From assembly GCA_964570515.1 (NCBI GenBank), contig CAZMYM010000003.1:24697-88696 (forward strand): a stretch of 64,000 bases of DNA, given 5' to 3'. Position 1 is the first letter of the stretch. Each line of letters starts with the position of its first letter. This document shows, piece after piece, positions 2,138-3,482 of this stretch. A program made the position numbers and the translations under genes. This DNA comes from an uncultured Thermotogae bacterium. GTDB lineage: Bacteria > Bipolaricaulota > Bipolaricaulia > UBA7950 > UBA9294. The notes under the pieces were generated by a model. That model was not told the origin of the DNA. It ran no database searches and saw nothing but the letters and a program-made list of their open reading frames with translations.

Positions 2138-2317
2138 ATGAAACGCTGGATCGCGCTTCTGGTTGCGGTCGCGCTGTTGGCGTCTGTTGCCGCGGTCGCA
2201 GTCGCGAGTCCGCTTCATATCGGCGGCGGACCGTCGCTTCTGAGTTCGCCGTTGCACATCGGCGGCGGACCGTCGCTTCTGAGTTCGCCGTTGCACATCG
2301 GTGGTGGGCCGGAGTAG
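2138..2317 (+). CDS. 59-aa secreted repeat peptide: signal peptide plus 3x SPLHIGGGP (putative signalling propeptide)
   Basis: RBS AAGGAGG at 2124-2130, ATG at 2138. [23 protein letters not shown] has a basic N-region, hydrophobic core and AVA cleavage motif. The 39-nt repeat units differ at synonymous positions. Confidence 0.85.
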
Positions 2318-2345
2318 CAGAACGCGGTAAGACGATATCGTTGGT

Positions 2346-2390
2346 GCGGCGAACCCCTCTCGCGAGGGAGGGGTTCGCCGCGCGGCTTTT
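2346..2390 (+). terminator. Intrinsic terminator-like hairpin after the peptide gene
   Basis: 14-bp stem GCGGCGAACCCCTC / GAGGGGTTCGCCGC with an 8-nt loop, followed shortly by TTTT. Confidence 0.65.
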
Positions 2391-2573
2391 GTCGTGAATC
2401 GAGTGGATTCGGAGACGAGGGGTGGTGCCCGTCGCGAGCGACCGCGATGCGGTACCATGCGGGTTCCGCGGTGCTTCGGATTCGAGCAGACCGAACCGTC
2501 TGCCTGTCTGAGCAGCGAGGAAGAATCAGAAAACACGGGCGCGCTTGCCCGTGTGGAAACACAGGAGTGCAAT

Positions 2574-3482
2574 GTGATCGACGGACTGAGCATTGGGAGA
2601 GCACGGGGCGAAGAGACCGAAGATCGCCACAGAGCAGCTCAGGAACTCCTCGCCACATACCGGGCTGTTGAGGTCACGCGCCACGTGATCCCGGCCGGGA
2701 AACCGATCTACTTCGACGAGGCATCGGATTGGTCGGGATTCGAGTTCATCTACGTCCTCAAGGGCTCCCTTGTGCTTGTTCAGGACGAGGAGACCGTCGA
2801 GTTGCAGGTGGGCGACTTCTTCTATCATGCCGGTCTCCCCGAGCGCGCGTTCTTCCGCGTGGAATCTGATACAGAGGTCTTGATGGTCTCGTCGCCGCCG
2901 AGCTACCATCTCATCCAGCACGAAGTTTCTGAGATGCTTGCGCTTGCTCGTTCCGTCGAAGAGAAGGACAAGGCGACGGAAGGACACTGCCATCGCCTGG
3001 AGCGTCTCGCGATCCTGACCGGTGAGCGCCTGGGCCTCTCGGGCCAGAGGTTGATCAACCTCTCGTACGGCGCGTATCTACACGACATCGGCAAGGTCAA
3101 GGTGCCGACCGAGATCCTGGGAAAGGCCAAGCCGCTGAGCGACGAAGAGTGGGACGAGATGCGGCGACACCCCGCACACGGAGAAGAGATGCTTCGCGAG
3201 AAGGACTTCCTTCTGGCTACGTCCACGATCGTGCGCGCGCACCATGAGCGCTACGACGGGACGGGCTACCCTGACGGGCTTCGCGGCGAAGAGATCCCGA
3301 TCGAAGCGCGGGTCATCGCCGTGGTCGACGCATACGATGCGATCACGTCCGAGCGTCCCTATCAGCCCGCGCTCGCTAGGGAGCGGGCGCTCGAGGAGCT
3401 TCGCCTTGGCGCGGGCACACACTTCGATCCCCGTGTAGTCCGAGCGTTCAGCTCAGTGCTCCCCGAGGACGACGATGCGTAG
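2574..3482 (+). CDS. Cupin-domain HD-GYP phosphodiesterase (putative c-di-GMP PDE)
   Basis: N-terminal cupin-like segment (FEFIYVLKGSL...LQVGDFFY). C-terminal HD-GYP with TEGHC, LHDIGK, HHERYDGTGYPDGL, VVDAYDAITSERPY. Likely start is GTG 2574 after AGGAG, not 2394. Confidence 0.88.
   Translation: MIDGLSIGRARGEETEDRHRAAQELLATYRAVEVTRHVIPAGKPIYFDEASDWSGFEFIYVLKGSLVLVQDEETVELQVGDFFYHAGLPERAFFRVESDTEVLMVSSPPSYHLIQHEVSEMLALARSVEEKDKATEGHCHRLERLAILTGERLGLSGQRLINLSYGAYLHDIGKVKVPTEILGKAKPLSDEEWDEMRRHPAHGEEMLREKDFLLATSTIVRAHHERYDGTGYPDGLRGEEIPIEARVIAVVDAYDAITSERPYQPALARERALEELRLGAGTHFDPRVVRAFSSVLPEDDDA

Follow-up and report, generated by a model that had tools for sequence, protein, structure and literature searches.

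To our knowledge, almost all known cases of cell-cell signaling by peptides that act on a receptor in the cytoplasm come from Firmicutes, where the receptors are always tetratricopeptide repeat (TPR) proteins. HD-GYP enzymes are controlled through receiver, PAS or GAF-type domains, and in the DSF-RpfC-RpfG system of Xanthomonas and Lysobacter the signal exchanged between cells acts on cyclic di-GMP (c-di-GMP) by way of an HD-GYP phosphodiesterase that it controls. The 64,000 nt stretch of DNA analyzed here (contig CAZMYM010000003.1, from an uncultured member of the Bipolaricaulota; hereafter the window) carries a gene for a short, apparently exported peptide with three identical repeats, directly upstream of a gene that encodes a cupin joined to an HD-GYP domain. 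The comparative data point to a new peptide family in a conserved module for which the RRNPP(A) cassettes (Rap-Phr, NprR-NprX, PlcR-PapR and AimR-AimP) would be the closest working analogy; the mechanism proposed below is one that we infer. An initial annotation of the window had presented the triple repeat as part of a candidate new signaling system, but the kind of arrangement, an exported multi-copy propeptide beside a cytoplasmic signaling protein, is already known. Multi-copy mature peptides have been described in Rap, NprR, PlcR and AimR propeptides, and RRNPPA systems also have genic duplication, tandem propeptide genes and pherotype-like changes at single positions (PMC5199041, PMC9765709). 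The parallel between bacterial multi-copy propeptides and fungal pheromones has likewise been drawn (PMC5199041).

The peptide gene (2138-2317, + strand) is an open reading frame (ORF) that encodes 59 aa and is preceded by an AAGGAGG ribosome-binding site (RBS; 2124-2130) that ends 7 nt ahead of the ATG and is invariant across all 9 aligned lineages. The predicted product begins with a Sec-type signal peptide of 23 aa (2138-2206; MKR, a hydrophobic core and A-V-A), as delimited from the statistics of 124 family members, and continues with a mature part (2207-2317) in which three identical SPLHIGGGP units (2207-2233, 2246-2272 and 2285-2311) are separated by SLLS and followed by Glu and the stop codon. 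In the DNA, the repeats appear as three 39 nt units that span 2210-2326, with identities of 100, 92 and 62%. The six-codon cores of these units have 8 codon differences, 8 synonymous and 0 non-synonymous, and in the 21 distinct genes with DNA the core codon differences within single genes total 170 synonymous and 0 non-synonymous, a count that is partly circular in that units were chosen by a motif pattern that fixes the Pro and the Gly-Gly, leaves position 3 free and allows I, L, V or M at position 2 and I, V or L at position 4. As the core differences are all synonymous, recombination that homogenizes DNA cannot account for the identity of the units, and by this codon comparison selection in the repeat units is on the peptide and not on the DNA, as the initial annotation had suggested. 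The Shine-Dalgarno sequence itself forms the loop of a short conserved stem (2120-2137; GACA-AGGAGGT-TGTC in the window, CGAC...GTCG in relatives) that resembles a CsrA-type site with GGA in the loop, and the leader CGGCGTTGTTCCGTTGTGAA of the peptide gene is also kept at the DNA level.

With the 59 aa sequence as query, 15 homologues were found, whereas a profile built from diverse members identified 176 clusters, of which the best 120 were listed. The named hosts among these listed clusters are Candidatus Bipolaricaulota, Bipolaricaulia and Acetothermia, plus a few labeled Thermotogota, and the listed members have no Pfam domain and no name beyond 'hypothetical protein'. Searches of Pfam and NCBIfam with three peptide variants returned only signal-peptide noise and no model for the family, and a search with the mature peptide against 1.8 billion representative proteins revealed no larger protein that bears the motif; the matches from outside the family were seven unrelated repeat proteins, one of 1137 aa with RIRIGGNAKSMS repeats. 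Three further candidates from a metagenome scan (L028 to L030) were discarded as false positives that matched in the signal peptide only, L028 being an unrelated 383 aa protein. As the same architecture recurs in more than 120 homologous clusters, the ORF is evidently a real gene and not a chance one, and judged by these searches the family is a previously undescribed one that is spread across the uncultured phylum Bipolaricaulota.

The signal peptide is well defined in the family as a whole. In the 124 members evaluated, Ala occupies position -1 in 116 and Val or Ala position -3 in 114, with Asp at +1 in 94; the N-terminus has a net charge of +2 and the uncharged run has a median length of 20. 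These are sequence features very consistent with an exported protein that has an A-x-A cleavage site. A lipoprotein, Tat or prepilin signal was considered and rejected, there being no lipobox Cys, twin-Arg or G|F motif, as was a double-glycine leader cut by a C39 peptidase, given the presence of a Sec signal and hydrophobic positions that do not fit the consensus of such leaders. In 121 members, the unit core conforms to P-[IL]-[HNQ]-[IV]-G-G-x and the first unit follows directly after the signal peptide; there are 2 units in 23 members, 3 in 74, 4 in 21 and 5 in 3, and the last GG lies 1-7 residues ahead of the stop in 119. The residues after GG vary between lineages (GP, T, GS, GQ, GT, LE, M, E, S, D), and lineage-specific versions of the unit (GGGP, GGT, GGGS, GGGQ, GGLE, GGM, GGE) are common to all copies within a gene: both the H/N/Q position and the first residue after GG are the same in every copy in 117 of the 121 members. 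Variable residues that change together in all copies would be the pattern expected of a specificity determinant, and would fit a multivalent binder too. Metal binding through the His was rejected as a general explanation, since whole sub-families have Asn or Gln in its place. One sub-family (PINVGGT, PIQVGGT, PIHVGGGS and similar; members P0165, P0176, P0190-P0199 and others, and the genes at 4566-4814 in related locus L033 and 4566-4790 in L034) has a second conserved segment, KVPAHAxAYGLR, between units, which could mark a site of processing or could itself be another peptide with a function.

Copy number differs even between close relatives. Compared with the window, related loci L002, L001 and L003 have 0, 1 and 10 mismatches, respectively, over 6.5-8 kb aligned, and each has one 39 nt unit fewer (2 versus 3). 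In the relative with zero mismatches, over 7961 aligned bases, the two-unit gene differs by a 39 nt indel that corresponds to 2219-2257; the two- and three-unit alleles are either a copy-number polymorphism at the strain level or a collapse in short-read assembly. Tandem paralogous peptide genes are present in L006 to L008 and in L023. In L006 both members of the pair (6001-6249 and 6516-6662) lie ahead of the HD-GYP gene, one encoding an 82 aa peptide with a long Pro/Ala-rich spacer between its first and last unit and the other a 48 aa peptide with two units. Together, the tandem paralogues and the unit indel may be taken as signs of fast turnover in the peptide genes.

To establish the genomic context, loci were gathered from two starts, the peptides themselves and orthologues of the HD-GYP protein at 59-68% identity. 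Across the 17 distinct locus types examined (the window plus 16 others), the gene immediately 5' of the cupin-HD-GYP gene always encodes a member of the peptide family; this is the co-occurrence for which the initial annotation had proposed a family search. What lies on the other side of the peptide gene is less constant: in most loci it is an opposite-strand PFOR gene, in L033 to L036 an MFS transporter gene and in L037 to L039 a Peptidase_S66 fragment with ThiS-like and AFOR genes. The gap between the peptide and HD-GYP genes is about 120-310 nt, except in L037 where it is 25 nt, which implies co-transcription. That the pair stayed together while its upstream neighbor changed three times, and that the gap in L037 is only 25 nt, is stronger evidence of a link than adjacency alone. 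As deduced from these loci, the module is ordered as peptide gene, probable leaky terminator hairpin, cupin-HD-GYP gene and a gene for a 57 aa glycine-zipper membrane protein, and this linkage is conserved. The features from which the initial annotation started, a 59 aa exported triple-repeat ORF with a strong RBS and its own terminator, followed by a cupin plus intact HD-GYP protein, all stand.

The two genes also share what may be a promoter. A promoter-like box (P1, 2064-2092, +) before the peptide gene reads GTCTAA-N17-CATAAT, with GAGG just ahead of the -10 hexamer, and a second box (P2, 2498-2526, +) with the same geometry, GTCTGC-N17-AAGAAT and again GAGG ahead of the -10 hexamer, precedes the HD-GYP gene. 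In an alignment of the peptide upstream regions of 9 lineages, GTCT is followed after 15 nt by GAGGCATAAC and then by the conserved leader, GTCT and GAGGCATAAC being (nearly) invariant; AAGGAGGT is invariant in the same upstream alignment. The pattern GTCT-N14-16-GAGGNANAAY has only two sites in the 64 kb, against 0.10 expected, one ahead of each gene, and each related locus contains one or two matches to it, ahead of these same two genes where coordinates were checked (for example L001, L006 and L009). With so few sites, the box is not the general promoter of the organism, and the peptide and HD-GYP genes probably respond to the same factor through it. Further upstream, in the intergenic region between the divergent PFOR and peptide genes, a 37 nt element is duplicated in two perfect copies (1937-1973 and 2017-2053, +), the second of which ends in a palindrome, TCTCTCGGAC-GAAC-GTCCGAGAGA (10+10; 2036-2059, +), that lies just 5' of P1. 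There are two copies of the 37 nt element in each of the window, L001 and L009, one in L015 and none in the other relatives, and the duplication with its palindrome is a candidate operator.

Downstream of the peptide gene, the terminator scan identified a hairpin of 18 pairs with a T tract (2344-2390, +; hairpin 2344-2383, then TTTT) that begins 26 nt past the stop codon and has a fold energy of -47 kcal/mol (z = -6 versus shuffles). Of 16 lineages, 11 have a GC-rich hairpin whose first base lies 22-38 nt beyond the stop codon, and in 10 aligned lineages 11 pairs are kept, 7 of the 11 with compensatory double changes. As the U tract is mostly poor, this structure is probably a leaky terminator or a 3' stabilizer of the peptide mRNA. 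The intergenic alignment revealed one more conserved block, ATGCGG-TACC-ATGCGG (2447-2462, +), within which GTACCAT is best conserved. No known riboswitch or leader accounts for the peptide region: Rfam, applied to the whole window at gathering thresholds and to 1600-2700 at E values up to 5, gave no relevant match, its hits being a tRNA (63651-63735) and sub-threshold noise.

The cupin-HD-GYP gene (2574-3482, +) encodes 302 aa, with the cupin at residues ~30-110 (2661-2903) and the HD-GYP domain at residues ~116-300 (2919-3473). Its start is most likely the GTG at 2574 and not 2394, as judged from an AGGAG 5 nt upstream and an N-terminus, [VL]IDGL[ST]IGR, that is kept in orthologues. Pfam identifies HD_5 (2.4e-39), HD (2.5e-18) and Cupin_2 (5e-6, 26.6 bits, which is below the 27.2 cut-off). 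The presence of a cupin fold is upheld by an AlphaFold2 model based on 60 orthologues (predicted local distance difference test, 81) in which residues 33-106 form a jelly-roll-type beta-barrel and a helical domain begins at residue 116, and by Foldseek, which matched the N-terminal part to cupins (3fjs, 2gu9 and 1y9q) and the C-terminal part to HD-GYP enzymes (4mcw, 4r8z and 9rbz). There are more than 120 orthologue clusters, with 58-100% identity, and all of the named ones are from Bipolaricaulota. This cupin is without the G-x5-H-x-H-x3,4-E motif of enzymatic cupins, the corresponding stretch reading GFEFIYVLKGSL with no His pair, and Foldseek relates it to cupins that bind small ligands in regulators, among them 1y9q and AraC/ToxT; it is more likely a ligand-binding, non-enzymatic domain.

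In the HD-GYP domain, LHDIGK and HHERYDGTGYP are both intact, and H138, H170, D171, H199, H223, E225, D228, G229, G231, Y232 and P233 are invariant in the 60 orthologues. PDB profile and sequence searches matched 5z7c, 4mcw, 4r8z and 9rbz, and the C-terminal 180 residues have 30-36% identity to PmGH (4mcw), PA4781 (4r8z), V-cGAP3 (5z7c) and DvhD (9rbz), with TM-scores of up to 0.8 (target-normalized). As in those solved enzymes, the HD and HHExxDGxGYP motifs are intact, but the N-terminal domain is a cupin and not a receiver, PAS or GAF-like domain. In the alignment with PmGH, the third-metal ligand of that enzyme, a Glu located four positions ahead of the first His that binds metal, pairs with Ala134. 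A trinuclear metal site of the PmGH kind is linked to the full hydrolysis of c-di-GMP to GMP, and the site in the present enzyme is probably binuclear. The closest sequence match in the PDB is V-cGAP3, which is specific for 3'3'-cyclic GMP-AMP (cGAMP). The general statement in the initial annotation that HD-GYP domains degrade c-di-GMP is thus an assumption for this enzyme, and the substrate of the predicted phosphodiesterase could be c-di-GMP, pGpG or cGAMP.

Set against the systems introduced above, the module has a mixed profile. As in RRNPP(A) cassettes, a small gene for an apparently exported propeptide adjoins one for a cytoplasmic signaling protein, here with the role of that neighbor as receptor a supposition; the presumed active unit is C-terminal, units are multi-copy, genes occur in tandem and single positions change in a lineage-specific manner, and an importer of the Opp type, though a generic one, is encoded in the genome. 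In contrast, the neighbor consists of a cupin and an HD-GYP domain with no TPR by Pfam, the AlphaFold2 model or Foldseek, the peptide gene is upstream and has its own terminator, and the host is a deep-branching bacterium with an outer membrane and not a Firmicute; multi-copy units, occasional there, are universal here, and there is no sequence homology. Yeast alpha-factor precursors contain repeated identical peptides with spacers, are processed by Kex2 and Ste13 at dibasic and X-Ala/X-Pro sites and act through G-protein-coupled receptors. These and the other fungal precursors are similar to the present family in their signal peptide, identical short peptides, short spacers and copy number that varies between strains, but Kex2/Ste13-type sites and G-protein-coupled receptors are not present here. 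In DSF-RpfC-RpfG the signal is a fatty acid, perceived by a histidine kinase and passed to the receiver domain of RpfG, whereas here there is no kinase or receiver and the sensor domain would be the cupin. A literature search found no paper that links Bipolaricaulota with HD-GYP and none on a cupin-HD-GYP protein paired with a peptide; TM0504 of Thermotoga, a conceivable analogue, was looked for without success.

The explanation that we consider best, with a probability of roughly 0.42, is that the peptide gene encodes an exported multi-copy precursor that is cut to short signal peptides and coupled to the HD-GYP module. Cleavage of the Sec-exported precursor at A-x-A would leave a mature chain of 2-5 short units, the last of which ends the protein, and this chain would then be cut outside the cytoplasm into identical short peptides. 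As a small residue plus Pro precedes every unit, one kind of cut would free all copies. The released peptides would be a signal functionally coupled to the turnover of cyclic dinucleotides by the HD-GYP enzyme, possibly by Opp-type re-import and cupin binding, possibly through the small membrane protein, or possibly by mere co-regulation from the shared box. The pheromone precursor put forward in the initial annotation is thus plausible and strengthened by the comparative data, in that the peptide appears to be exported, under selection and linked to the same gene phylum-wide, whereas the Rap-Phr scheme is not simply transplantable to a cell with an outer membrane. The more specific proposal that units such as LHIGGGP or DPIHVGGGP are re-imported, bind the cupin and directly switch the HD-GYP phosphodiesterase seems quite unlikely. 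An Opp/Dpp-type ABC operon does lie ~17 kb away (19557-26765, -), as had been pointed out, but it is of a generic type.

Several observations weigh against a peptide signal of this kind. The codon count has the circularity described above, and a peptide with a multivalent structural or binding role could likewise account for identical repeats that are selected at the peptide level. There is no TPR receptor, histidine kinase or DNA-binding regulator within the module. The organism has an outer membrane with BAM-type assembly, since the window encodes BamA (POTRA plus Omp85; 50696-52906), an OmpH-like protein (52981-53724) and two large SurA_N-PPIase/TPR (SurA-like) proteins (12837-15473 and 16895-19246), and Sec export would therefore carry the peptide only as far as the periplasm, not straight into the medium. 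The distance between peptide units correlates with the distance between cupins, when controlled for HD-domain distance, with a partial r of 0.27 (permutation p 0.03), but the reverse control, for the HD domain, is higher at 0.44; there is therefore no cupin-specific co-variation, and binding of the processed peptide by the cupin, as originally suggested, gains nothing from this comparison. Adjacency alone is also weak evidence and could be inherited gene order, as the block downstream of the pair is syntenic almost everywhere (a 57 aa gene, a 439 aa gene, and genes for a CDP-alcohol phosphatidyltransferase, RluD, NusA and MMPL).

That last point can be taken further, to the view that the peptide and the HD-GYP enzyme are functionally unrelated and merely retained in an ancestral order. 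Nearly the whole block from HD-GYP to NusA/MMPL is syntenic and no physical or co-variation link was found, but the upstream neighbor has changed three times while the peptide gene stayed with the HD-GYP gene, the short gap in L037 implies co-transcription, and the promoter-like box is common to both genes and found nowhere else in the 64 kb, all of which makes this view distinctly unlikely. A role in the periplasm or envelope we regard as somewhat unlikely. The peptide would then be an effector and not a signal, for instance a multivalent binder, an antimicrobial peptide rich in Pro and Gly, or a component that serves in a matrix or in adhesion, and it would be co-expressed with the phosphodiesterase for the same envelope or biofilm program. 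Its product would land first in the periplasm, given the outer membrane that BamA, the OmpH-like protein and the two SurA-like chaperones indicate, and identical repeats would suit multivalent binding; the strong RBS, own promoter and terminator hairpin point to a highly expressed gene, as one that codes for a structural product would be, and the shared box would fit co-regulation without direct interaction. However, the units are very short (8-9 aa), the lineage-specific changes recur in every repeat as in a specificity determinant, and the last unit is at the C-terminus as in pheromone precursors. Moreover, the motif is absent from larger proteins among the 1.8 billion searched, and a single chromosomal position that is fixed throughout a phylum is not what one would expect of a bacteriocin.

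Repeated identical cores with conserved flanks also resemble the multi-core precursors of ribosomally synthesized and post-translationally modified peptides (RiPPs) such as cyanobactins, and in RiPP clusters the gene for the precursor often has a read-through hairpin behind it, so that the units could in principle be modified, before or after export, by enzymes encoded elsewhere. The initial annotation had noted no adjacent RiPP enzyme and this holds more widely, as the Pfam scan detected none of the RiPP-type enzyme families among 44 window ORFs (2138 to 62429; about ten shorter or terminal ORFs fall outside the scan) and none of the genes called in the related loci is a RiPP-type modifying enzyme. 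With no Cys, Ser or Thr in the unit core, and a classical Sec signal where a leader recognized by such an enzyme would be, a RiPP precursor is very unlikely. Least likely of all is a cis-acting secretion monitor or ribosome-arrest peptide of the SecM/MifM/VemP kind, in which H-I-G-G-G-P would stall the ribosome and so control the downstream operon. SecM, MifM and VemP are comparable in being short ORFs with an export signal, a Gly/Pro motif near the stop and a hairpin before the next gene; a signal peptide followed by Gly-Gly-Pro 1-7 residues from the stop recalls the GIRAGP of SecM, and the hairpin after the ORF is conserved. In those systems the stalled ribosome frees the RBS of a downstream secretion or insertion factor, whereas here the downstream gene encodes an HD-GYP enzyme, which is not a secretion component, and has its own promoter-like box. 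In addition, the motif is repeated, and its first copy comes immediately behind the signal peptide, a place at which the translocon could not exert its pull. Many members, whole sub-families among them, lack the Pro after GG (for example PINVGGT-stop and PIHVGGG-stop), and the geometry of the hairpin is unsuitable, as at 26 nt past the stop it would be beyond a stalled ribosome.

If the module functions as a signaling system across this uncultured, deep-branching phylum, it would broaden both fields: peptide signals would gain a new class, and cyclic-dinucleotide signaling a new kind of input. Were gating through the cupin also true, this would be a peptide-gated cyclic-dinucleotide enzyme and the first RRNPP-like quorum-sensing circuit whose receptor is not a TPR protein, in bacteria that are deep-branching and have an outer membrane. 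With components as small as peptides of 9 residues and a soluble enzyme of 302 aa, biochemical testing is possible without culturing the organism. Even if it is not a signal, the peptide represents a new and strongly constrained family of exported mini-proteins that is a marker of Bipolaricaulota genomes.

The third protein-coding gene of the module (3475-3648, +) encodes a 57 aa protein with glycine zippers and two predicted membrane helices. The gene begins within the end of the HD-GYP gene, overlapping its stop (ATGCGTAG), and its translation is therefore probably coupled to that of the HD-GYP gene. Gene calls in 13 of the 17 locus types include an ORF of 57-59 aa here, and the invariant residues are R8, H11, P17, G19/23/27, D32 and G36/40. 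The helices bear GxxxG zippers, SRWRH is conserved at the N-terminus, and the Asp that never varies lies in the short loop; the window protein has no Pfam or NCBIfam match. The 439 aa protein (3718-5037, -) adjoins the module in every locus, on the opposite strand; its matches to CobW/HypB-type P-loop proteins are faint, and cyclic 2,3-diphosphoglycerate synthetase (9sxb) is matched weakly and in part (E 5e-5). In L033, a 682 aa ORF with no Pfam match (6254-8302) is inserted between the gene for a 58 aa membrane protein and a 438 aa gene, the only break of the downstream synteny seen. Elsewhere in the window, the solute-binding protein of the Opp/Dpp-type operon (24138-26765, -) is unusually large at 875 aa, with its SBP_bac_5 match limited to residues 80-317, and a SpoVS homologue (1e-29; 12435-12755, +) is encoded between the RNase Y and SurA-like genes in this non-sporulating candidate phylum.

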